Below are positions 3,825 to 55,551 of a stretch of DNA of 64,000 nucleotides, piece after piece. The DNA is from an uncultured Chloroflexia bacterium (GTDB taxonomy: Bacteria > Chloroflexota > Dehalococcoidia > DSTF01 > JALHUB01): the NCBI GenBank assembly GCA_963703345.1, contig OY969814.1, forward strand, positions 2,119,998 to 2,183,997, given 5' to 3'. The position numbers and the translations under genes are program-made. The notes beneath the pieces are model-generated. The model searched no databases and was not told the DNA's origin. It saw only the letters and a list, made by a program, of their open reading frames with translations. The number at the start of each line of letters is the position of its first letter. The first letter of the stretch is position 1.

Positions 3825-3898
3825 AGTCCGAAACGCGCCGACAAGTCCGCTCGTTCTCGGACGGGATTCGGCCTCTCTAATGCCAAACTGTTTCCCGG

Positions 3899-4407
3899 AT
3901 GGGCGTCGATTCTAGTCAGCAGCGAGCTGCCGCCATCATTCTGTTCGCGCTGTTTAGGGGCAGGCGCCGGTCTGAAGTTCTCGTGTTGCGGGCGGCTGAT
4001 CTGACACGGAACGGCGGGAAAGTCTATTACGAATATCGTGGCAAGGGCGGCACGGTCAACCACAGGGGCTCCCCGAGCCAGTGTTCAAAGCCATTCTCAA
4101 TGCCCTCGCCGCGGAAGGGAGGTCGCTCCAGGAGATGGGCGCGGGAGAGCGGCTGTTCGGAATTGGTGCGCACGGGTTCTACCTCAACCTAAGGCGACAC
4201 CTGCGGAAGGCGAATCTGCCGTACACAGGCGTACACGTCCTGAGGCATTCAGCCGCGAAGCTGAGAAAAGACGCCGGGGAAGGCATTGAGCAGGTGTGGA
4301 AGTCCCTCGATCACTCTTCTCTTGCCGTCACGACGACCTAACTTCGACGGCTCGAAGGAGAGGGTGACAATAGTTGGCAGCCGGTCGCGCGGTTGCTTGA
4401 GATGTAG
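3899..4407 (+). pseudogene. Tyrosine recombinase (phage-type integrase) remnant: 5'-truncated, frameshifted, with an in-frame TAA
   Basis: Box I-like LFALFRGRRRSEVLVLRAADL in frame 2. Box II-like HVLRHSAAKL...LDHSSLAVTTT in frame 1, so a frameshift lies near 4055-4066. TAA at 4339-4341 interrupts ...TTT*LRRLEGEG. No N-terminal core-binding domain. Confidence 0.7.
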
Positions 4408-4453
4408 GTTCCTGAATCTTCCTCGCTGGTTCCCTCTGCGCGGTCGCGGATGT

Positions 4454-4819
4454 CTAAGCAGCAGCAGCTCCATCTTCTCGCTTGCGGGTACGCGACAAGT
4501 CGCGGAAGCGCTTATCAACCGCGGCCCGAGTTCGCCGCAGCTTCGCCTCTCCGTTGGGCCCGACCGGTAGCGACCAGTCGTCCGCCGCTCTTGACCGTTT
4601 GCGACGATGCTTGCGCGCCACGTGGAGATCGAGCAGGCCTTGAGTTTCAGCAACGTCCGGCACTCCCTCCTCTGCTGAGAGAGAGCGAGGATCAACCTCC
4701 TCATCCGAGGACAACGGTAAGCCCTCGCTGCCAACCTCGTCCTCGTTGACCTGAATCATGCGCTTCAGAGCCCACGCGCTCAATGCCATGACTGTCGCCA
4801 ATGCCAGGAGTCTGCGCAT
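4454..4819 (-). CDS. Hypothetical small secreted acidic/basic protein
   Basis: ATG at 4819 after a GGGGG run. N-terminus MRRLLALATVMALSAWA looks like a signal peptide. No recognisable domain. Lower third-position GC than neighbours. Confidence 0.3.
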   Translation of the reverse strand: MRRLLALATVMALSAWALKRMIQVNEDEVGSEGLPLSSDEEVDPRSLSAEEGVPDVAETQGLLDLHVARKHRRKRSRAADDWSLPVGPNGEAKLRRTRAAVDKRFRDLSRTRKREDGAAAA

Positions 4820-4886
4820 TTCTTCGCCCCCGCGTGCCAATTAGATTATCGGCAGGCAACGGCCATTAGGAGACATTATTAGGCGT

Positions 4887-4913
4887 GGGGTGCCAATATT
4901 CCATCCGTATCTG
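4887..4913 (+). repeat. 27-bp repeat, copy A
   Basis: GGGGTGCCAATA-TTCCA-TCCGTATCTG. 22/27 identical to 10615-10641, same orientation. Confidence 0.6.
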
Positions 4914-5138
4914 GGAGAGCGGCGAGTGGCAAACCAGGACCGCCAAATGCCGGCAGAGGAGCGCAAACCTTCTGCCTAGAAAGCATCTGCGCCTGAGCGC
5001 TGTGCAACAGAATCAGCACCCCTGAGCGAAAACGCGGAGGTTATCATCTGGAACGGCCCAGGTTCCTTGCGGTCGGCATCGGGACGCCGGCTCTGGCGGC
5101 GATGCCCTCGAGAACGAGTACAACGGGTTGCTGGCGGG

Positions 5139-5167
5139 CCGCTGCTCTACCTCTGAGCTACGCTGGC
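5139..5167 (-). pseudogene. tRNA-like 5' fragment (acceptor strand + D-arm only)
   Basis: Minus strand reads GCCAGCG-TA-GCTC-AGAGGTA-GAGC-A. No anticodon arm, T-arm or matching 3' acceptor follows. Confidence 0.4.
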
Positions 5168-5314
5168 CCGAATGAAAGCATAGCCAACCGCCGGAGGGAA
5201 TCAAACGCTGGCCAGGACCCGAAAGACACGCGGAGGGCCAGGAGTCTTTGCTTTGGCGGCCCACGGCCCTCCAACTGACGACGAGGGACTAGTCGTGCTT
5301 GGTTAGCCTGCCTA

Positions 5315-5824
5315 CTACGGCTGCTCCGTCTGCGTCGGCGTCGGCGTTGGCTCGTTGTTGTGCGACTTCGGGCCGTGCGGCTTCACGGCCTGACACGGAA
5401 CATTCACCTGCTTGCCCGACGGCACAATTTTGATTACCGTCTCGCCCTTGTCACAAACGCCGTCGCCGTTCTCAGGATGCTTGCTCGGATTGCTGTCGGG
5501 TATCCCGACAACGTCGCGCTGGCCCTCGCCCGGAGTGGGCGTCGCCGTGTTGGTCGGCGTCGGCGTGTAGGTGTTAGCCGGCGTCGCCGTGTCCGTAGGC
5601 GTCGGCGTCGCGGTGTCCGTAGGCGTGGCCGTCGCCTCGTCAACCGCAATCGATTCGGCAGAGGGAGTCTCCGCCTGGCCGACCACTTGCGACGTGCCTC
5701 TGTCCACCCCCCGGAAGACGCTGTCCTGGGAAGCGAACGTCGCGGCGCTGCCGCTGGACAGAGCTGCCACCACGACCAATGCGATTGCCTTGTGCTTCAT
5801 CGCTAGAATCAGCAAACTTCTCAT
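5315..5824 (-). CDS. Secreted protein with Pro/Thr linker and small Cys-containing C-terminal domain
   Basis: ATG 5824 preceded by AAGGAGGAAGT. Signal peptide MRSLLILAMKHKAIALVVVAALS. TATPTDTATPTPTDTATP linker. Confidence 0.65.
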   Translation of the reverse strand: MRSLLILAMKHKAIALVVVAALSSGSAATFASQDSVFRGVDRGTSQVVGQAETPSAESIAVDEATATPTDTATPTPTDTATPANTYTPTPTNTATPTPGEGQRDVVGIPDSNPSKHPENGDGVCDKGETVIKIVPSGKQVNVPCQAVKPHGPKSHNNEPTPTPTQTEQP

Positions 5825-5978
5825 ACTTCCTCCTTGCGAAAGCAGCGTTTTCTGGCGAGGGTCTACTGAATCAATCGGCACAAAGGCGGGGATCTGTGCC
5901 CCAACGGCCCGGCTTTTCGCGTCGCCTTGCTTCTCTTCTCACCAGCCATATTGAGTTGCGAGCGGCAACGCTCTGACT

Positions 5979-6007
5979 AGTATAGGATAGTCGGAATCCG
6001 ATCGCAA
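5979..6007 (-). promoter_or_regulatory. Candidate sigma70-type promoter for the 5315-5824 gene
   Basis: Minus strand TTGCGA-17 nt-TATACT, about 150 nt upstream of the start codon. Confidence 0.4.
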
Positions 6008-6191
6008 TGCCTCGACGCGCTCGAGAATCCCGCACCACAGATAGATGAAAAACAGGTCCACCGCGACGGCGTCGGCCGCCGCAGTCGCCGTGGGCGCCGG
6101 GGGCAAGCCTCATCTCTATCGGCATTGTGCAACAGGCCGCGTGAGAACAATCGGCGGTCAGAGTCTGGAGAGTGAATTCTGTCTGTTGTTC

Positions 6192-6229
6192 TGGTGGGCG
6201 ATGCAGGGCTCGAACCTGCGGCCTTCTGG
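6192..6229 (-). pseudogene. tRNA 3' fragment (variable region, T-arm, acceptor 3' strand, CCA); possible att-site remnant
   Basis: Minus strand ...AGGCC-GCAGG-TTCGAGC-CCTGC-ATCGCCC-A-CCA. The matching 5' strand GGGCGAT and a D/anticodon arm are absent upstream. Confidence 0.55.
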
Positions 6230-6235
6230 GTGATA

Positions 6236-6306: not shown

Positions 6307-8268
6307 TTAGTGGGTGCAGCGGCGACCAAGCTGCTGGGCGATCATGATCAGATCGGTGTTATTCACCTTTGCATCGTGGTTTATGTCGTAGAGCGGGCTC
6401 GTGCTTCCGCGCATGATGGCTCGAGCCTCGATGAGAACGTCAGCCATCGTTACCTTCCCGTTTCCGTTCACGTGGCCGCAATGGATGATCGGCGTGCGCG
6501 CGCTTGTTGCCGTAGCTGGCCTCGTCGGTGTCGGAGTTATCGTTGGCGGTACTGGAGTGGGCGTTAGGGTCGCAGTTGGAGGGGGCGTAGCGGTCGGCGT
6601 TGCCGTAGGCGCGCTTGTTGCCGTAGCTGTCCTCGTCGGTGTCGGAGTTATCGTTGGCGGTACTGGAGTGGGCGTTAGGGTCGCAGTCGGAGGGGGCGTA
6701 GCGGTCGGCGTTGCCGTAGGCGCGCTTGTTGCCGTGGCTGTCCTCGTCGGTGTCGGAGTTACCGTTGGCGGTACTGGAGTGGGCGTTAGGGTCGCAGTTG
6801 GAGGGGGCGTAGCGGTCGGCGTTGCCGTAGGCGCGCTTGTTGCCGTAGCTGTTCGTGTACTAGTCGGAGATGGCGTGCGGCTGGGGATCGACGTGGCTGA
6901 GCTTGTCGAGGTCGGCGTTGGGCTGGGCGTAAGCGTACTGGTCGCCGACGCCGTGGGCGAGGGCGTGACGTCCGGCGACGCAGGAACGTCAACATAGTAA
7001 GCATAGGTTTCGATGGCGCACTCGCCGTAGCCGATCTTGAAATAGCCGTCGCCGTTCCAGGTGCTGCCCCAGCTATTCTTGACGATCCAGTAGCCGCCGG
7101 CGTCGTCGTAGCCCGTGATTACGACGGCGTGGTTGGCGCCGGTGTCGTTGGTGCAGTGATAGACGCCCTGAGCGTCGAAGGCGCCGCCGTATCCGCCGCC
7201 GACTCCGATGGCAACCACCAGTGGTCCCTTGTCGACGAGCGTCTGCTTCATCTGATCGGCGGGAACGGCGGTGACGGCGTTTATCTTCACCGACCGGCTC
7301 TGGTAGTCGTTGCAGCGATTGGAGCAGGTGGCGTTGCTGCAGGCGCTGCCGGTGTGATAGGTGCAGCCGGTACCGCAGCTCGTGCCGCAGGAGCAGCTGG
7401 ACTGGTTGACGTAAGGCAGGCAGGCTTCGTCCGGTACTCCGTTGTCACGGACGTAAGAGAGAGCGCTGACGTAGTCGCCGCCGCAGCAGTTGCCGTAGGA
7501 ACCCATGGAGTAGCAATCGGAGACGAGGTATTCCTCCGAGAGATCGAGGCTAAGGTTAGGGTTGCCGCTCGCGATGTTGTAGGTCCCTTCGGTGACGCCG
7601 GCTGAGGCGAAGGCCCAGCAAGAGCCGCAGCCGCCCTGGTTCTTGACGCTGGTCATCCAGTTCTGACCGTTCTGGTTGCGCCAGTCGAAGGAGGCGGGAG
7701 TTGAGACGATGATGTCGTTTTGCTGGCCGGAGGGGGCCGGGCTCTGAAGGGAGGGGACGCTGCTCCGGGTCGCCTTCTTGCTCAGGTCCATCATGCCGTT
7801 GACGGAGCCGACATCCTGCTTGCTGTCACGTTTGACGCACTCGGCGTAGTCCTTGGAGAGCGAGCCGCCAGCGCCGTGTTTGGTGACGACGTCGAGTCCC
7901 TGCTTGGCGCAGTAGGAATACTGCTTGCCGCACTCGCCGTTGAGGAAGCTCCACTCCTCGCAACTGCTGCCGTCGGGAAAGACGCAGGTGCCTTGCTCGC
8001 TGCCGTCGGCGCTGCTGGTGATGCGATAGTCGTAGCCGAGGTCCTTGCAGTAGGTTGCGGCGGGGTTTGCCATGCCGAGGCGGTCGCCGTTGTTGCTGCC
8101 GCCGCCGCAAGTGGCCGGCGCCTGGCTGGAGAAGTCTTGCGCGGTCGCCTGTTCAGGGGAGGCCGAATCGCCGGAAGATTCTCCGCCAGCGTGTCCAAGG
8201 ATTATCCAGGATACGACGAGGACCGCGATAACCGCAGCTAGTGTCGCAACCGACAGCTTGTAACGCAT
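6307..8268 (-). CDS. Secreted papain-family (C1A) cysteine peptidase with N-terminal DUF333-like domain, PT-repeat linker and C-terminal dockerin-like module
   Basis: ATG 8268 after GGGAGGTGGATCA. Signal anchor MRYKLSVATLAAVIAVLVV. NPAATYCKDLGY...CVFPDGSSCEEWSFLNGECG is DUF333-like. QGGCGSCWAFAS, NHAVVITGYD and KNSWGSTWNGDGYF carry the Cys/His/Asn triad. Tail GHVNGNGKVTMADV...YDINHDAKVNNTDL. Confidence 0.85.
   Translation of the reverse strand: MRYKLSVATLAAVIAVLVVSWIILGHAGGESSGDSASPEQATAQDFSSQAPATCGGGSNNGDRLGMANPAATYCKDLGYDYRITSSADGSEQGTCVFPDGSSCEEWSFLNGECGKQYSYCAKQGLDVVTKHGAGGSLSKDYAECVKRDSKQDVGSVNGMMDLSKKATRSSVPSLQSPAPSGQQNDIIVSTPASFDWRNQNGQNWMTSVKNQGGCGSCWAFASAGVTEGTYNIASGNPNLSLDLSEEYLVSDCYSMGSYGNCCGGDYVSALSYVRDNGVPDEACLPYVNQSSCSCGTSCGTGCTYHTGSACSNATCSNRCNDYQSRSVKINAVTAVPADQMKQTLVDKGPLVVAIGVGGGYGGAFDAQGVYHCTNDTGANHAVVITGYDDAGGYWIVKNSWGSTWNGDGYFKIGYGECAIETYAYYVDVPASPDVTPSPTASATSTLTPSPTPTSTSSATSIPSRTPSPTSTRTATATSAPTATPTATPPPTATLTPTPVPPTVTPTPTRTATATSAPTATPTATPPPTATLTPTPVPPTITPTPTRTATATSAPTATPTATPPPTATLTPTPVPPTITPTPTRPATATSARTPIIHCGHVNGNGKVTMADVLIEARAIMRGSTSPLYDINHDAKVNNTDLIMIAQQLGRRCTH
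6498..6852. repeat. 3.2 copies of a near-identical 111-bp tandem repeat inside the protease gene (37-aa PT unit)
   Basis: GCGCGCTTG recurs at 6498, 6609, 6720 and 6831. Units differ by only a few bases. Encodes TRTATATSAPTATPTATPPPTATLTPTPVPPT(V/I)TPTP. Confidence 0.9.
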
Positions 8269-8446
8269 TGATCCACCTCCCGATTTCCGACAAGATGGTC
8301 CCCTGTTAGACTTATCGACAAGTCGGCGGCAAAAGGTTGGGCGGAACCCTGTGGGGGCCAAGAATCTCATCCGAATCTGACTGATTGACCGAAGACGGCG
8401 TCCGGGCGAGCCTTACCGCATCCGTCCTGAAGGAGGCCGCGCCTTG

Positions 8447-8487
8447 GGGGGAATTGGATAACGACGCGTCTTCACGCGTTCTGCACA
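8447..8487 (+). repeat. 41-bp operator-like repeat, copy 1
   Basis: GGGGGAATTGGATAACGACGCGTCTTCACGCGTTCTGCACA. 39/41 identical to 8894-8934. Contains ACGCGT-CTTC-ACGCGT. Ends 20 nt upstream of a -35 box. Confidence 0.8.
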
Positions 8488-8507
8488 TTATTAAAACGAG
8501 CCGTTAC

Positions 8508-8536
8508 TTGACAAGCCAATAAGGGGACACTAGTAT
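8508..8536 (+). promoter_or_regulatory. Candidate sigma70-type promoter with no obvious downstream gene
   Basis: TTGACA-17 nt-TAGTAT. Confidence 0.45.
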
Positions 8537-8893: not shown

Positions 8894-8934
8894 GGGGGAA
8901 TTGGATAACGACACGTCTTCACGCGTTCCGCACA
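8894..8934 (+). repeat. 41-bp operator-like repeat, copy 2
   Basis: GGGGGAATTGGATAACGACACGTCTTCACGCGTTCCGCACA. Ends 25 nt upstream of a -35 box. Confidence 0.8.
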
Positions 8935-8959
8935 CGATTTGCGGCACGACTCACGATTA

Positions 8960-9211: not shown

Positions 9212-10507
9212 ATGAAGTACAACAAGGATGACCGCAGCCCGAGGCGCGCTGCACGGGTCATCGGAAGACGGGGAGGAGCCGCTCTGGCCCTGGCGATGGG
9301 CCTGGCGCTGATCGCAGGGATGGTCATTTGGTCCCCCTGGGCTGGGGCAACCGGTTCGGGCCCCCTCCATGGCATCAGCTTCCTCAAGGGCTGCGCCGGT
9401 CCGACAAACGTGGGTGACCCGTACACCTGCTCGTTCTCAATTACGAACACTGCCGACGAGGCCCAGGACACCCTGACCATCACAGTCGTAGATGACTTAG
9501 TGCATGCTACTGGCGGCGACGCTGATTCGGGCAACTTGCTGCCGGGCGCAAGTCTCACCTTCGGCTTGAACGGCACCGCATCCTGCAACGTCGGCCAGAC
9601 GCTCTGCACGCTTCCCTTCGGCTCGTCTATCACCTTCACGCAGACAGCGAACCTCTACATCGTCAAGGCCACCGATCCGAACCCCTTGACCGACACGGCG
9701 AACTTGACGTGGCAGGACAAATGCGACAAGGGCGCTACAAACTGTCCGCTGGGAGACCAGACCGCGTCCAGCGGCTCTCAGTCGCCGCTGCAGACGCCGA
9801 CGTTCACGCCTACGAACACGCCGACGAATACGCCGACGAACACACCCACAAACACGCCGACGAATACGCCGACAAACACACCGACGAACACGCCGACGAA
9901 CACGCCGACGAACACGCCGACGATCACGCCGACAAACACGCCGACGATCACGAACACGCCGACGAACACACCGACTAACACGCCGACGATCACGAACACG
10001 CCGACGAACACGCCGACGAACACGCCGACGATCACGCCGACGTCGACCAACACGCCCGCGCTCGGGTGTGCCCTCAGCCCCGGCTTCTGGAAGGGCAGCG
10101 CAGCTAACCAGGCATTGTGGGATAGCCCCACGGATCCGATCGCCATAGCAGCCGGATTCTATGGTGGGCTAACCTTCCCGAAGACCAGTCTGACGTACCT
10201 CCACGTGATGCAGCTGCCCAAGGGGGGCGACGTCACTATCCAGCTCGCCTTCAAGTACATCGCGGCTCGGCTGAATGTCGCCGACGGCCTTACGAATCCT
10301 GCGTACTTGTCTGGGCTACTGGATCAGATTCTGAAGCCAAGTGGCGCGCCACCAATGACGGGATCAGCTTGCAGCGGTGGCTTCTTGTGCACCAACCCCG
10401 TAGGCAGCAATCCTGGCACCATCGCCGCTGCGGTTGGGAAGATCCTCCTCGGCCAGATCGACAACTACTTCTCAACGGTTGGCGAGACCGGCTGCCCTAG
10501 CAGCTAG
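9212..10507 (+). CDS. Secreted protein: DUF11-like beta domain, (TNTP)n linker, Cys-containing C-terminal domain of unknown function
   Basis: ATG after AAGGAGGGTAAGAC. N-terminal TM/signal. [24 protein letters not shown]. More than 20 TPTN repeats. C-terminal [20 protein letters not shown]... Confidence 0.8.
9790..10055. repeat. 12-bp-period tandem repeat encoding (T-P-T-N/I)n
   Basis: ACGCCGACGAAC-type units repeated with third-position variation. Confidence 0.85.
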
Positions 10508-10594: not shown

Positions 10595-10614
10595 CAGTTG
10601 CCCGCACCGGGTGA

Positions 10615-10641
10615 GGGGTGCCAATAATATGTCCGTATCTG
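10615..10641 (+). repeat. 27-bp repeat, copy B
   Basis: GGGGTGCCAATA-ATATG-TCCGTATCTG. Confidence 0.6.
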
Positions 10642-51753: not shown

Positions 51754-52125
51754 GGAAAACCCCTCACCGCAGCCAGACTCAGGCGGCCACGCCGCTTCGC
51801 CGGTCTCCCAATCGGCGTAATTCCCAAAGGAGCCACGGATCAATGGTTTCCTGGCGTTCCTCAGCGAGTTCCCCTGATTGAACCCGCCCCTCTGAGTGAG
51901 CGACCATACTTCAAGCGCCCGACTATTGCTGGAAAGGAAACCGCATGGAGCTCATCGCTAGATGTGGCCAAGGGCATAACCGAAGGGCGGCTCGTCTTCG
52001 GAAAGTCACCGACTAAACCTACCGGTGAGCCGTGACCAACTCGTGACGAAGATGACCGTTAGTGTGTGCCGGAGCAGCGCGTCACCCGGGTGGAGATGCC
52101 GCTTCCCGGACAGAGGGAGAGAGCA

Positions 52126-55100
52126 ATGAGAACGAGAATCCGCCTGGTTGCCGGAAGCACGGCGATAGTCGCGCTTGCTGTCTTGTCGGGTCTCATCTTC
52201 GCAGCTCCCACCAAGAGCGGTGCAGACGATGCTGTGCAGTTCACACTCGATTCCTCCAGCTACAGCGCCGCGGTGGGGGATACGTTTGACGTCAAGGTCA
52301 ACCTGGGAGTGCTAACCAACAACGTCTCGCTCTTCGCCTTCCGTCTTCCCTACGACCATGACACCCTGCAGATCATCAGCACTGTTCCGGACAATCCCGC
52401 GCCGTGTCCATCGGGGCTAAGCGATGTCGAGATACTGGACTGGGACTACAACGGCCTGGCGCTGCGCCTCCAATGCGAGAGCGTTGACGGGAGCGCCGAT
52501 CCGCCTTTGACCGGGACCGCCCAACTGATAGACATCACATTCCAATGCGCCGCAGCGGGCAGCACTAGCCTTCAGATTGGCGCCCAAAACGCGATTGATG
52601 CCGACGGCAACAACTACGGCGCGACTGCCGGGCCGGCCGCAGGCGTCGTCTGCAACGACGCCCAGTTGACCATCGTCAAGCACGTTGTGAACGATGACGG
52701 CGGCGAAGCGGACGCTTCCGACTTCACCATGAGCGTCACCGGCACTAACGTGCAGCCTTCCGACAGCTTCGCCGGCAACGAGGACGGCACCACCGTCACC
52801 CTCGACGCCGGCCCCTACTCCGTCGGTGAGACCGGCCCAAGCGGTTACAGCAGGAGCGACTCCGTGGACTGCTCGGGGACAATCGCTCTCGGTGAGTCGA
52901 AGACCTGCACCATCACCAACAACGACGAGCCCGGCACGCTGACCGTTATCAAGCATGTCGTGAACGACGACGGCGGCGCGAAGGTCGCCGGGGACTTCAG
53001 CTTCAGCGTGAACGGTGGCGATCCGACCTTCTTCAGTCAGGACCCGGAGGACGCCAGCCTGGGTGAGAACAGCCTGACGGAGGACGCGGGCACCTACAGT
53101 GTGGTCGAGGCCGGGGTACCGATTAGCGGCTACACGACGACGTACGACAACTGCGCCGACGTCAGCATCGCCAACGGTGAGACGCAGACCTGCACCATCA
53201 CCAACGACGACACAGCTCCGACGCCCACTGGGACGCCAACAGACACGCCGACGGTGACGGATACGCCCACTGAGACGCCGACTGAGACGCCGACCGACAC
53301 GCCGACGGTGACGGATACGCCCACTGAGACGCCGACTGAGACGCCGACCGACACGCCAACGGTGACGGATACGCCCACTGAGACGCCGACGGTGACGGAT
53401 ACGCCGACCGACACGCCGACGGTGACGGATACGCCGACTGAGACGCCGACGGTGACGGATACGCCGACTGAGACGCCGACGGTGACGGATACGCCAACCG
53501 ACACGCCGACGGTGACGGATACGCCAACCGACACGCCAACGGTGACGGATACGCCGACCGACACGCCAACGGTGACGGATACGCCGACCGACACGCCGAC
53601 GGTGACAGATACGCCGACTGAGACGCCGACTGAGACGCCGACGGCGATACCAACCGTGCAGTTCGCACTCGATTCCCCCAGCTACACCGCCGACGTGGGA
53701 CATACATTCCACGTCATCGTCAGCCTAGGAGACCTGACGAACAACGTCTCGATCTTCGACTTCCGTCTTCCCTACAACCATGGAATCTTGCAGGTCGTCG
53801 CCACTGTTCCGGACAATCCCAACCCCTGCCCATGGTTGCTGGACGACTACGAGAGGTTGAACCGGGACTACGCCGGTGTGGGATTGCGCTTCCAATGCGA
53901 CAACTTCAGCGGGGGCGCTAATCCGGCTCAGAGCGGGACCGTCCAACTGATAGACATTACGTTCGAGTGCACCGCAGCGGGCAGCGCTAGCCTTCAGATT
54001 GGCTCCCAGTACGCGATTGATGGCGACGGCATAGACTACGGCGCGACTGCCGGGCCTGCCGCGGACGTCGTCTGCAACGAGGCCCCGGCAACCGACACGC
54101 CGACGCCGACGGATACGCCAACTGAGACGCCGACGGATACGCCAACTGAGACGCCAACGGTGACGGATACGCCAACCGAGACGCCGACCGACACGCCAAC
54201 GGTGACGGATACGCCAACTGAGACGCCGACCGACACGCCAACGGTGACGGATACGCCAACTGAGACGCCGACCGACACGCCGACGGTGACGGAGACGCCG
54301 ACCGAGACGCCAACGGTGACGGATACGCCAACCGAGACGCCGACCGACACGCCAACGGTGACGGATACGCCAACCGAGACGCCGACGGTGACACCAACCG
54401 ACACGCCGACGGCGACACCAACCGACACACCGACGGTGACACCAACCGACACGCCGACGGTGACGGATACGCCGACTGAGACGCCGACCGACACGCCGAC
54501 GGTGACGGAGACGCCAACCGACACGCCGACGGTGACAGATACGCCGACTGAGACGCCGACGGTGACACCAACCGACACGCCGACGGCGACACCAACCGAC
54601 ACACCGACGGCGACACCAACCGACACGCCGACGGTGACACCAACCGACACGCCGACGGCGACGGATACGCCGACTGAGACGCCAACGGTGACGGATACGC
54701 CGACCGACACGCCGACGGTGACGGATACGCCGACTGAGACGCCAACGGTGACGGATACGCCGACTGACACGCCGACGGTGACGGATACGCCAACCGAGAC
54801 GCCGACCGACACGCCAACGGTGACGGATACGCCGACTGAGACGCCGACGGTGACACCAACCGACACGCCGACGGCGACACCAACCGACACACCGACGGTG
54901 ACACCAACCGACACGCCGACGGTGACGGATACGCCGACTGAGACGCCAACGGTGACGGATACGCCAACCGAGACGCCGACGGTGACACCAACCGACACGC
55001 CGACGGCGACACCAACCGACACACCGACGGCGACGCCAACCCAGACGCCAACGGTGACGGATACACCAACCGACACGCCGACGGCGACACCAACCGACAC

Positions 55101-55551
55101 ACCGACGGCGACACCAACCGACACACCGACGGCGACACCAACCGACACGCCGACGGCGACGGATACGCCGACTGAGACGCCAACGGTGACGGATACGCCG
55201 ACTGAGACGCCGACGGTGACGGCGACCGCGATCGCCACCGCGACAGCGACAAGCGTGTATCATCGGTCGGCGACGGCCACCAGCACTCCCCTTCCGACGG
55301 ATACGCCGGCGGCCACGGCTACGCCGACCAATGGACGCCAGCCAGCGGCGCCACAGGCACCTGTCGAGGGGCCCGGCTCCGGCCCGCCACCAAACGGAGG
55401 TGCAGCCGGCGCAGGAGTGACGGCGCCGAAGACGGGGGAAGCCGACCCCGCGACCGGTGACAGTGCTTACATAATGGTCGCGGCACTCTTGGGTGCGCTG
55501 GCCGTGGCGCTCACGCTGACCAGTCTCGCCATGCGCAAGCAGAGGTTCTAG
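52126..55551 (+). CDS. Large surface protein: signal peptide, cohesin-like module 1, two prealbumin/SpaA-like domains, PT array, cohesin-like module 2, long PT array, sorting-signal-like anchor
   Basis: ATG after GGGAGAGAGCA. Modules at 52228-52665 and 53650-54085 are mutually similar (VQF(T/A)LDS.SY.A.VG.TF.V.V.LG.LTNNVS.F.FRLPY.H..LQ...TVPDNP...LIDITF.C.AAGS.SLQIG). LT(I/V)(V/I)KHVVNDDGG domains occur twice. Tail VTAPKTGEA...TM...RKQRF. Confidence 0.85.
53215..53655. repeat. PT tandem-repeat array 1 (units of 24/36 bp encoding [14 protein letters not shown])
   Basis: ACGGTGACGGATACGCC(G/A)AC(C/T)GA(C/G)ACGCC(G/A) iterated. Confidence 0.9.
54085..55250. repeat. PT tandem-repeat array 2 (about 1.15 kb, same unit family)
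   Basis: As array 1, with additional ACACCAACCGACAC(G/A)CCGACGG(C/T)G units. Confidence 0.9.

Follow-up and report, generated by a model that had tools for sequence, protein, structure and literature searches.

A papain-family peptidase with two DUF333 modules, no I29 propeptide and a dockerin tail: DUF333 as a candidate prodomain-like partner

Introduction

In papain-family enzymes, folding and latency are believed to require a propeptide of the I29 type. The gene described here, found in a window of 64,000 nucleotides (the whole stretch of DNA that was analyzed), encodes a papain-family peptidase with no such propeptide. Instead, DUF333 sequence precedes the catalytic domain, and a dockerin follows it at the end of a long repetitive linker. 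The locus raises two questions: what, if anything, does the work of the missing propeptide, and where is the enzyme held?

Results

The gene and the order of its domains

We placed the start of the gene at the ATG at 8268. The open reading frame extends over 6307..8370 on the minus strand, and we prefer the internal start because a Shine-Dalgarno sequence precedes it and because, in a paralogue whose N-terminal sequence is conserved, the frame opens just one codon upstream of the corresponding Met. The gene, its upstream signals and the regions outside the main domains are as follows.

6307..8268, minus strand: coding sequence of a 653-residue pre-pro-peptidase, stop codon at 6307-6309 (list of open reading frames, translation and Pfam)
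8273..8280, minus strand: Shine-Dalgarno sequence GGAGGTGG, 4 nt ahead of the ATG at 8268 (read directly)
8514..8487, minus strand: promoter-like TTGTCA-16-AATAAT (consensus match only)
8194..8268, minus strand: residues 1-25, MRYK plus a hydrophobic helix, predicted Sec signal peptide or uncleaved signal anchor (sequence reading)
8080..8193, minus strand: residues 26-63, low-complexity spacer with a nearly invariant Cys54 (alignment; pLDDT <50)
6481..6981, minus strand: residues 430-596, Pro/Thr-rich stalk (Tandem Repeats Finder)

The domains occur in the order signal or anchor helix, DUF333, divergent DUF333-like module, Peptidase_C1, Pro/Thr linker and dockerin. The initial annotation had read a DUF333-like domain, a C1A peptidase, a linker of three 111-bp repeats and a dockerin-like tail from the letters of the DNA. 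Pfam gave the same order, and the architecture was confirmed at the coordinates listed, with matches far beyond chance. Tandem Repeats Finder likewise recovered the linker repeat (6498-6852; period 111 bp, 3.2 copies, 97% matches, score 682).

We found that this architecture is common. The combination had been thought unusual and perhaps undescribed, a view that does not hold: approximately 1968 proteins among the matches listed, or some 2000 close homologues, share it. PF03891 and PF00112 occur together in nearly all of the best 120 homologues, which their sources name "putative hemolysin/C1A family cysteine protease" or "DUF333 domain-containing protein".

The catalytic domain

The catalytic domain belongs to the papain family and contains a Cys-rich insertion.

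6994..7698, minus strand: residues 191-425, papain-family (C1A) catalytic domain (Pfam Peptidase_C1, PF00112, E=6.9e-41)
7636-7638, 7618-7620, 7129-7131 and 7075-7077, minus strand: codons of the catalytic residues Gln211, Cys217, His380 and Asn398, respectively
7300..7422, minus strand: residues 283-323, Cys-rich insertion with 8 Cys that are invariant across the family (alignment columns; poorly modelled)

The catalytic Cys, His and Asn that had been recognized at first are present, and in a sequence alignment these three (Cys217, His380 and Asn398), together with Gln211, line up with their counterparts in cathepsin C. Among solved structures, cathepsin C is the closest in sequence (E=1e-29). 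The structural model gave the same picture: Foldseek matched it to cathepsins with E values from 1e-13 to 7e-16, the latter for cathepsin C, and the matches to cathepsins S, K and L (TM ~0.75 on the target, E ~1e-13 to 1e-14) indicate a papain fold. Two insertions of the catalytic domain were poorly modelled. By its profile match, its aligned catalytic residues and its predicted fold, the product is a member of peptidase family C1, subfamily C1A.

The 8-Cys insertion is located where, as we take it, cathepsin B has its occluding loop. It is also found in the peptidases of the split loci described below, and relatives that lack DUF333 have a short version with two Cys.

A tandem of DUF333 modules and no I29 propeptide

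We found that the N-terminal block contains two modules, followed by a variable linker.

7936..8076, minus strand: residues 65-111, DUF333 module 1, four Cys (Pfam PF03891, E=7.6e-18, 65 bits against a cut-off of 25)
7765..7935, minus strand: residues 112-168, module 2, diverged DUF333-like repeat that has a single Cys pair and terminates in the conserved motif (E/D)LMxLSxK (HMM and model)
7699..7764, minus strand: residues 169-190, flexible variable linker and likely processing site (predicted; pLDDT <50, variable in alignments)

Module 1 shows the conserved DUF333 pattern NPAxxYC...C...C...W.F..G.C in the alignment, and a genome-wide profile search put it at the same coordinates. Several lineages lack both its third and its fourth Cys, and this joint loss implies that the two form a disulfide. 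Module 2 has weak internal similarity to module 1 (E=0.042) and follows it in 29 of 80 genome loci from bacterial and archaeal phyla, as judged with a local HMM. In the model of the tandem (pLDDT 85.6, pTM 0.78), a helix/three-strand/helix pattern occurs twice. The DUF333 identity first given to the N-terminal block was therefore correct; its reading as a single module was not, given the HMM, the internal similarity and the model.

We found no I29 propeptide in the protein, in agreement with the first reading of the sequence. Neither I29 (PF08246, the family of the ERFNIN/GNFD helices) nor any other propeptide family matched in Pfam at E<=1, and there was no match in NCBIfam. I29 was also absent from 38 DUF333-less relatives (Pfam, E<=0.01). 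A possible homology between the LMxLSxK... linker and the short "WxAGETSMSRLSPEER" propeptide of DUF333-less relatives was rejected: the hhalign probability of 91% fell to 0.5% once the mature P.SFDWR anchor was removed.

Foldseek found no significant match to the tandem among PDB structures or viral models (best E=0.26 and 0.018, respectively), so the tandem has no fold link to known inhibitors. In a literature search we found no functional study of DUF333 or YoaF, and no link of either to peptidases.

DUF333 is a regular partner of a large C1 branch

The tandem is widespread and is often found with C1 peptidases. A profile of the two modules matched 5056 cluster representatives, and the architecture occurs in many bacterial and archaeal phyla. 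The tandem is kept ahead of C1 in Chloroflexota, Zixibacteria, Gemmatimonadota, Ignavibacteria, Acidobacteriota, Parcubacteria, Eisenbacteria and several archaeal phyla. Peptidase_C1 was present in 36 of the best 70 proteins found with the tandem profile, and no other peptidase family appeared among the 25 families listed. Module 1 is not confined to C1 fusions, as indicated by lipoproteins with 3-7 copies of it and by a DUF333 match in the E. coli control genome.

We found natural split forms at three independent loci (L098, L101 and L102). At each, a gene for a secreted or lipoprotein DUF333 tandem lies upstream and runs into the start of a C1 gene. The C1 products have their own signal peptide followed directly by the mature N-terminus (LPDHFDWKD, DLPVYFDWRA and ALPDSFDWRD), with no pro-region. 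At a further 8 of 80 loci, DUF333-only open reading frames adjoin C1 open reading frames. One of these neighbour loci (L039) has a single DUF333 lipoprotein and a C1 peptidase with its own short propeptide, and DUF333 is therefore not always the sole pro-region. A word-based search for free-standing tandem proteins gave one partial protein only; an exhaustive profile search recovered them.

The catalytic-domain tree separated the two kinds of peptidase. One side of a branch (SH-aLRT 89) held 31 fused forms, 1 split form and 4 neighbour forms, as well as a single DUF333-less row; on the other side were 42 of the 43 DUF333-less forms and the remaining 2 neighbour forms. The labels on the tree require 8 changes, compared to a mean of 30.8 when shuffled. 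DUF333 is thus a regular partner, fused, split or next door, of a large C1 branch without I29 in bacteria and archaea. The natural split genes give strong comparative support to the idea that the tandem may serve as a surrogate prodomain. The split systems wholly lack the counterpart of linker 169-190. The linker is therefore dispensable, and any inhibition would not occur by the "backward-running peptide" mechanism of I29.

The split systems would suit a permanent second subunit equally well as an inhibitor. The tandem could remain with the mature enzyme and, as an accessory domain, determine its specificity, or could bind substrate or an envelope polymer. The precedent is the N-terminal beta-barrel exclusion domain of cathepsin C, which turns an endopeptidase into a dipeptidyl peptidase and persists as a separate, non-covalently bound chain. 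Cathepsin C is the closest solved relative in both sequence and fold and also has an extra N-terminal domain; moreover, the repeats of module 1 in lipoproteins resemble binding repeats. However, adding the N-terminal region did not improve the match to cathepsin C (1jqp; 384 aligned columns, rmsd 13.9, TM 0.45) over that of the catalytic domain alone, and the tandem by itself matched neither the exclusion domain nor anything else in the PDB with Foldseek. We therefore rejected a structural analogy to the exclusion domain. In addition, cathepsin C needs an I29-like activation peptide. The DUF333-C1 family lacks one, so that only the tandem is left as a candidate for latency or folding. We regard an accessory role as unlikely, and favor a prodomain-like one.

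A role mainly as a membrane-proximal tether or adaptor seems less probable still. Here the tandem would hold the peptidase at the surface through its N-terminal helix or, in split forms, through a lipid. The tandem always adjoins a membrane signal: the signal or anchor helix in our protein, and lipoboxes (ISGC and TSGC) in the split partners P0129 and P0131. The neighbour-type partners have a C-terminal membrane helix. Against this, our protein and most of its relatives already own a C-terminal anchoring device (either a dockerin or an Arg-rich tail preceded by a membrane helix), which would make an N-terminal one redundant, and anchoring alone leaves the missing propeptide unexplained.

The tail is a dockerin relative

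The C-terminal region matched dockerins by two kinds of profile comparison.

6316..6480, minus strand: residues 597-651, dockerin module bracketed by Cys597 and Cys651 (Pfam PF00404)
6439-6474, minus strand: predicted Ca-binding loop 1, HVNGNGKVTMAD, with His599 and Asn603 at ligand positions 1 and 5
6352-6387, minus strand: predicted Ca-binding loop 2, DINHDAKVNNTD, canonical

Dockerin_1 (PF00404) matched residues 600-647 with 25.8 bits, ~3 bits above the cut-off of 22.9, and with 29.5 bits in the genome-wide search. A profile built from tails of this type matched solved type-I dockerins (2y3n_B, E=1.4e-12; 4fl4_A, E=1.7e-11; 1ohz_B, E=1e-10), compared to ~1e-3 for calmodulins. These results uphold the dockerin-like tail of the initial annotation. 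Two details that it gave are also present in the sequence: loop 1 starts with His instead of Asp, and two Cys flank the module. Among homologues with dockerin-type tails, a Cys follows the last loop in 82 of 83 and lies on both sides in at least 60 (a crude regex count).

A substitution within the family points to retention at the surface as the function of the tail. In ten of 103 aligned family members, a C-terminal anchor made of a membrane helix and an Arg-rich segment replaces the dockerin, and several of the membrane-anchored members share the motif GGIAE[LP]P with a 1232-residue scaffoldin.

We found that the genome encodes candidate partners for the tail. Profile searches gave 17 cohesin matches on ~8 proteins and seven dockerin matches. 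The scaffoldins are built from a signal peptide, PT stalks and, at the C-terminus, a membrane helix followed by an Arg-rich tail. The dockerin cargo consists of two S8 peptidases, two DUF333-C1 peptidases and two TSP3-repeat proteins; we found no carbohydrate-active enzyme among the seven dockerin-bearing frames of the genome. Because the 17 cohesin matches fall on membrane-anchored scaffoldins and the cargo is mostly peptidases, surface display through the predicted cohesin-dockerin pairing is likely. One candidate partner is in the same window.

52063..55548, plus strand: 1161-residue surface protein containing PT stalks, a pair of cohesin-like modules and a membrane helix at the C-terminus

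Its cohesin matches are at genome positions 2172237-2172608 (29.9 bits) and 2173677-2173808. This is the weakest scaffoldin assignment, because a whole-protein Pfam scan at E<=0.001 listed no Cohesin.

The tail might instead be simply a Ca-binding EF-hand pair, or a degenerate, non-binding dockerin, with the protease set free in the medium. In loop 1, His599 and Asn603 occupy positions 1 and 5, at which the closest homologues retain Asp (CGDVTGDG...), the Pfam score is barely above the cut-off, and no cohesin gene adjoins the protease gene. However, the tail profile matches solved dockerins with E values some nine orders of magnitude lower than for calmodulin, and loop 2 and both predicted helices are canonical. 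Besides the 17 cohesin matches of this genome, a genome of the same genus has 7 cohesin matches and a homologous dockerin-coding 3' end. We consider free release very improbable, and retention at the surface the better reading of the tail.

The protease gene adjoins a decayed integrative element, and we rejected the notion that it is cargo of that element. In the same-genus genome, ~100 bp separate the homologous dockerin-coding 3' end from the same AAA+ gene, and the 2.4-kb segment that contains the integrase scar is missing. Tentatively, since the same-genus assembly is fragmented, we suggest that the scar marks an insertion beside the gene and not the vehicle of the gene.

Discussion

Our results are most consistent with an exported, zymogen-like C1A precursor that has the DUF333 tandem as a prodomain-like partner and is held at the cell surface by its dockerin; we hold this reading with moderate confidence. 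The Sec signal or anchor helix would carry the peptidase across the membrane. The disulfide-stabilized tandem, ending in LMxLSxK, would stand in for the I29 propeptide as a dedicated globular foldase, inhibitor or both, acting in cis or in trans, and the enzyme would stay latent until linker 169-190 was cut. The mature enzyme would then remain bound to the cell surface, with its dockerin plugged into the cohesins of membrane-anchored scaffoldins and a Pro/Thr-rich stalk of ~165 residues carrying the enzyme at its end. In this position it may digest external protein for uptake, beside the dockerin-tagged subtilases.

The precursor resembles I29 zymogens (procathepsins L, K and S; propapain) in its set of Gln, Cys, His and Asn, its N-terminal pro-region and its predicted export. 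It differs from them in that I29 is replaced by a globular DUF333 tandem that is sometimes a separate protein, and in the additional 8-Cys segment inserted into the catalytic domain. Cathepsin C (dipeptidyl peptidase I; 1jqp, 3pdf) likewise has an additional domain before its catalytic part, and just ahead of its mature N-terminus is a similar stretch, DL.(K/R)(K/R)...PAP...P.S(F/W)DWRN. In contrast, Foldseek detects no relation between the folds of the N-terminal domains. Cathepsin C, a tetramer, retains an I29-like activation peptide and is not known to carry a dockerin.

The split forms recall known inhibitors of cysteine peptidases that are free-standing and propeptide-like or are encoded in an operon: CTLA-2/BCPI (I29-type), staphostatin with staphopain, and chagasin/ICP. 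DUF333, likewise, is found fused as a pro-region and as a small protein of its own, encoded beside the peptidase. It has no sequence or fold relation to these inhibitors, and its inhibition is putative. Module 1 is a bona fide member of the DUF333 family, which some sources label "putative hemolysin" and of which E. coli YoaF is presumably an example. The difference from other DUF333 proteins is that here a C1-specific second module and motif follow, fused to a peptidase.

A broader possibility, which we put forward as doubtful, is that DUF333 is an unrecognized family of partners (prodomains, inhibitors or foldases) of papain-type peptidases. It would act as a cis pro-region in a large prokaryotic C1A clade and in trans as a secreted or lipid-anchored protein. 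The free-standing and multi-headed lipoproteins, including those of the YoaF type, might then inhibit cysteine peptidases at the surface or in the periplasm, with the 8-Cys insertion as a docking platform.

Surface display of peptidases by cohesin and dockerin is an already known kind of system. Dockerin-tagged peptidases have been described in cellulosome producers, among them an S8 double-dockerin protein of C. thermocellum and a cysteine peptidase of R. flavefaciens bound to ScaE, with retention on cell-bound scaffoldins thought to occur (PMC12484212). As in those organisms, S8 and cysteine peptidases are dockerin cargo here. The differences are that we found no carbohydrate-active cargo and that a membrane helix at the C-terminus holds the scaffoldins in place. 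The host also differs: the names of the nearest homologues suggest that it is probably a Dehalococcoidia-like member of the Chloroflexota. This part of the finding adds one more cellulosome-style system with peptidase cargo, in a small-genome Chloroflexota-type bacterium, to a principle already known, and it bears on how such bacteria may feed on external protein. For the family, DUF333, long a domain of unknown function and in some databases a "putative hemolysin", gains a concrete candidate function, and it may define a new kind of cysteine-peptidase inhibitor or foldase.

A papain-type peptidase with two N-terminal DUF333 modules

The ORF containing the protease gene spans 6307..8370 on the minus strand. 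The start codon is best read as the ATG at 8268, because a Shine-Dalgarno sequence (GGAGGTGG, 8273-8280) precedes it and because the start of a paralogue (below) cannot be moved upstream, its frame opening a single codon ahead of the equivalent Met. Translation gives 653 residues, with these Pfam domains:

residues 65-111: DUF333 (E=7.6e-18)
residues 191-425: Peptidase_C1 (E=6.9e-41)
residues 600-647: Dockerin_1 (25.8 bits; cut-off 22.9)

DNA encoding the Pro/Thr linker consists of a 111-bp unit (3.2 copies, 97% matches, at 6498-6852). No propeptide family was recognized by Pfam, even at E<=1, and no NCBIfam model matched. All elements of the initial annotation were thus correct: the domains, the catalytic residues, the 111-bp repeat, and the absence of an I29-type propeptide.

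Gln211, Cys217, His380 and Asn398 line up with the catalytic residues of cathepsin C, the best solved relative (E=1e-29). An AlphaFold2 model of residues 40-440 (alignment of 103 sequences, mean pLDDT 69.5) predicted the papain fold well. Foldseek matched this model to cathepsins S, K and L (TM about 0.75 on the target) and to cathepsin C (E=7e-16). Its low-quality regions were the inter-domain linker, a CC-pair loop, and a 41-residue insertion (residues 283-323). We conclude that the gene is real and intact and encodes a papain-type peptidase that is predicted to be exported.

The N-terminal block had been described as a DUF333 domain. That assignment held, but the region is a tandem of two modules rather than a single DUF333. 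The YC...G...C pattern of module 1 (residues 65-111) recurs weakly in residues 112-168 (module 2; pairwise E=0.042), and a confident model of residues 58-170 (pLDDT 85.6, pTM 0.78) contains a helix/three-strand/helix unit twice. Module 2 lay directly 3' of module 1 in 29/80 genome loci from many phyla (local HMM), and a conserved motif, (E/D)LMxLSxK, closes the tandem. In the alignment, module 1 had lost its third and fourth Cys jointly in several lineages, as expected of a putative disulfide pair. Foldseek searches with the tandem found nothing significant in the PDB (best E=0.26) or among viral models (best E=0.018).

The architecture is widespread

The domain combination had been considered unfamiliar. 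However, it is not rare. At least 1968 proteins, among the matches listed, matched the target at E<=0.001 in a word-indexed search, and nearly all of the best 120 of these contain PF03891 and PF00112. Source names include 'putative hemolysin/C1A family cysteine protease' and 'DUF333 domain-containing protein [Dehalococcoidia bacterium]'. Relatives are encoded in 568 stretches of species-representative genomes. An exhaustive profile search with the tandem only yielded 5056 cluster representatives at E<=0.001 (1711 at E<=1e-10). The tandem with Peptidase_C1 occurs in:

Bacteria: Chloroflexota, Zixibacteria, Gemmatimonadota, Ignavibacteria, Acidobacteriota, Parcubacteria, Eisenbacteria and one Desulfobacteraceae genome
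Archaea: Pace-, Micr- and Nanoarchaeota

Halobacteriota and Woesearchaeota loci encode module 1 and Peptidase_C1, with module 2 weak or absent at the thresholds applied. Within the window's own class, DUF333 was patchy (4/151 sampled genomes), and all matches lay within long C1-type frames, barring those truncated by contig ends. In a tree, bacterial and archaeal sequences from different phyla surrounded the target catalytic domain, a placement that points to probable lateral spread. The literature searched contained no paper on the DUF333-C1 architecture, which is ordinary and widespread, yet apparently unstudied.

The dockerin tail and probable surface display

The proposed dockerin-like tail was borne out. 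A profile of 11 target-type tails matched solved type-I dockerins at E=1.4e-12 to 1e-10, versus only about 1e-3 for calmodulins. Of the two loops, the second is canonical; in the first, His599 and Asn603 stand at positions that are Asp in the nearest homologues. Many family members have a Cys ahead of the first loop and another behind the final helix, which fits the disulfide clasp suggested initially.

The source genome (a single 2.28-Mb contig, C1) has 7 dockerin and 17 cohesin matches. The dockerin bearers fall, by Pfam domain, into three pairs: S8 subtilases, the DUF333-C1 peptidases and large TSP3-repeat proteins. The proteins that bear the cohesins, among them a 1610- and a 1232-residue scaffoldin, begin with a signal sequence, contain Pro/Thr stalks, and end in a membrane helix plus Arg-rich tail. 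One candidate, assigned from the genome search only, lies within the window:

52063-55548: candidate cohesin protein

Cohesins were found in 29/151 sampled genomes of the class. Surface display of the peptidase via dockerin-cohesin pairing is likely. Cellulosome producers are known to carry dockerin-tagged S8 and cysteine peptidases on cell-bound scaffoldins (PMC12484212), so this half of the architecture belongs to an already known kind of system.

In 10/103 aligned family members the dockerin is swapped for a C-terminal membrane-helix/Arg-rich anchor, and several membrane-anchored members share a GGIAE[LP]P motif with the 1232-residue scaffoldin. These findings support surface retention as the probable purpose of the tail. 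In homologue tails and in the scaffoldin at C1:1905048-1908743, GGIAE[LP]P is followed after about 25 residues by a hydrophobic helix and then WY(A/V)RRR(W/R), a sorting-like signature that may act as an anchoring or sorting signal specific to the lineage.

The paralogue (L094; C1:262102-264435, outside the window) is 89% identical over the N-terminal 440 residues. Its C-terminus differs, with a PT linker, a cohesin-like domain, and a second dockerin type with internal Cys (GDADKDGVVTMIDALRINQCIAGLIDC...). An S8 subtilase (C1:704616-707432) ends in the same cohesin and dockerin tail; both proteins combine a predicted plug and socket. Cohesin/dockerin gene clusters lie outside the window at C1:665806-680988 and 704616-712823. 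They include the 1610-aa scaffoldin (at least 4 cohesins, very long TPTETPTD stalks, a C-terminal membrane anchor), whose gene adjoins that of a 1115-aa dockerin protein without an assigned function.

Genomic surroundings

The protease gene is flanked by a decayed tyrosine-recombinase segment and a divergent gene for a secreted TNTP-repeat protein, with a SecA gene further along:

3825-6234: remnant of a tyrosine recombinase, frameshifted, with two ORFs for small secreted proteins (4454-4840 and 5315-5881, both minus)
9212-10507, plus: the divergent neighbour, a secreted protein, (PTNT)n linker, end domains bracketed by Cys; no Pfam match
4882-4913, 8348-8379 and 10610-10641: 32-nt element, GGGGTGCCAATA..ATCCGTATCTG
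8447-8492 and 8894-8939: direct repeat of 46 bp with 91% identity, between the protease gene and the TNTP-protein gene

We considered whether the recombinase element was the vehicle of the protease gene. At a same-genus locus (G058 contig C3), about 100 bp separate a homologous dockerin-coding 3' end from the same upstream AAA+-type gene, and the 2.4-kb recombinase segment is absent between them. This tentatively indicates, from a fragmented assembly, that the scar is an insertion beside the protease gene rather than its vehicle. The two outer copies of the 32-nt element match each other at 81%; the one between them is weaker, at 66%, and overlaps the in-frame ATG at 8370, upstream of the start chosen for the protease. 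With three copies, the element is not a simple attachment-site pair. Promoter-like hexamers (sequence match) lie beside the first 46-bp copy, at 8514..8487 (minus) and 8508..8536 (plus).

Probable DUF333 partners encoded by separate genes

At three independent loci, one from a JGI metagenome (L098) and two from NCBI assemblies (L101, L102), a tandem-protein gene overlaps the start codon of a Peptidase_C1 gene. Each split C1 product has its own signal peptide followed immediately by the mature N-terminus, with no pro-region in any of the three:

L098: ...STPVEA LPDHFDWKD
L101: ...ASASDLPVYFDWRA
L102: ...TMALPDSFDWRD

DUF333-only ORFs adjoin C1 ORFs at 8 further loci (six-frame scan of 80 genome loci). 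Four genes just 3' of the C1 gene (L027, L041, L044, L062) encode a signal peptide, the tandem and the closing motif. The L041, L044 and L062 products extend into Cys-rich CPxDCxSG..D.YCD..D..CDPDC repeats; those of L027 and L062 have a C-terminal membrane helix, and L041 reaches the contig end. The four appear to be a third, anchored form of DUF333 partner.

Peptidase_C1 was present in 36 of the top 70 tandem-profile matches, and no other peptidase among 25 families listed. Free-standing proteins among the best matches fell into three classes. The first consists of both modules and the motif behind a signal peptide or lipobox, and ends at real stop codons in the cases checked. The second comprises double-tandem proteins. 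The third comprises lipoproteins with 3-7 copies of module 1 (metagenome proteins P0122, P0123, P0128, P0130, P0134 and P0141, without module 2 or peptidase), a layout that recalls multi-headed inhibitors or binding repeats.

The tandem as a probable partner of the peptidase

The split peptidases share a Cys-rich insertion with the target:

7300-7422, minus: 8-Cys insertion in the catalytic domain (residues 283-323; C-x-C-x3-C-x3-C-x7-C-x4-C-x3-C)

The eight Cys are invariant across the DUF333-linked C1 branch, split forms included (alignment), and DUF333-less relatives have a short two-Cys version at this site. The insertion, which we take to occupy the position of the occluding loop of cathepsin B, may serve as a docking platform or as an occluding loop.

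In a maximum-likelihood tree of catalytic domains (quick search), a branch with moderate support (SH-aLRT 89) separated two sides. One held all fused forms (31/31), the split form, 4/6 neighbour forms (a DUF333-only ORF alongside) and one DUF333-less form; the other held 42/43 DUF333-less forms and 2/6 neighbour forms. The observed labels required 8 changes, versus a mean of 30.8 when shuffled (none of 200 shuffles reached so few). Taken together, gene fusion, gene fission, neighbourhood and association by clade show, at the level of sequence, that the tandem and the DUF333-linked branch work as a pair.

DUF333-less relatives have a short N-terminal extension (consensus IxxAIxxxGAxWxAGETSxxxLxxxERxxxLG), which Pfam recognized as I29 in 0/38 members. 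Its apparent similarity to the target linker arose only from the shared mature N-terminus (hhalign, 91% with this anchor, 0.5% without).

The natural gene fissions are the strongest evidence on the purpose of the tandem. C1A enzymes are known to depend on a propeptide for folding and latency. Since the split peptidases have no other pro-region, a prodomain-like role for the tandem, as foldase and/or inhibitor in cis or trans, is most likely. The inter-domain linker is missing from the split systems, so any inhibition must be exerted by the globular tandem as it docks on the enzyme. This would differ from I29 propeptides, in which an extended peptide runs backwards through the cleft. Alternatively, the tandem may be a permanently bound accessory subunit, comparable to the exclusion domain of cathepsin C, or a membrane-proximal tether. 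In the prodomain-like role that we favour, the tandem would substitute for the propeptide, in cis or trans. The DUF333 tandem as a cis or trans partner in place of a propeptide is worth testing at the bench.
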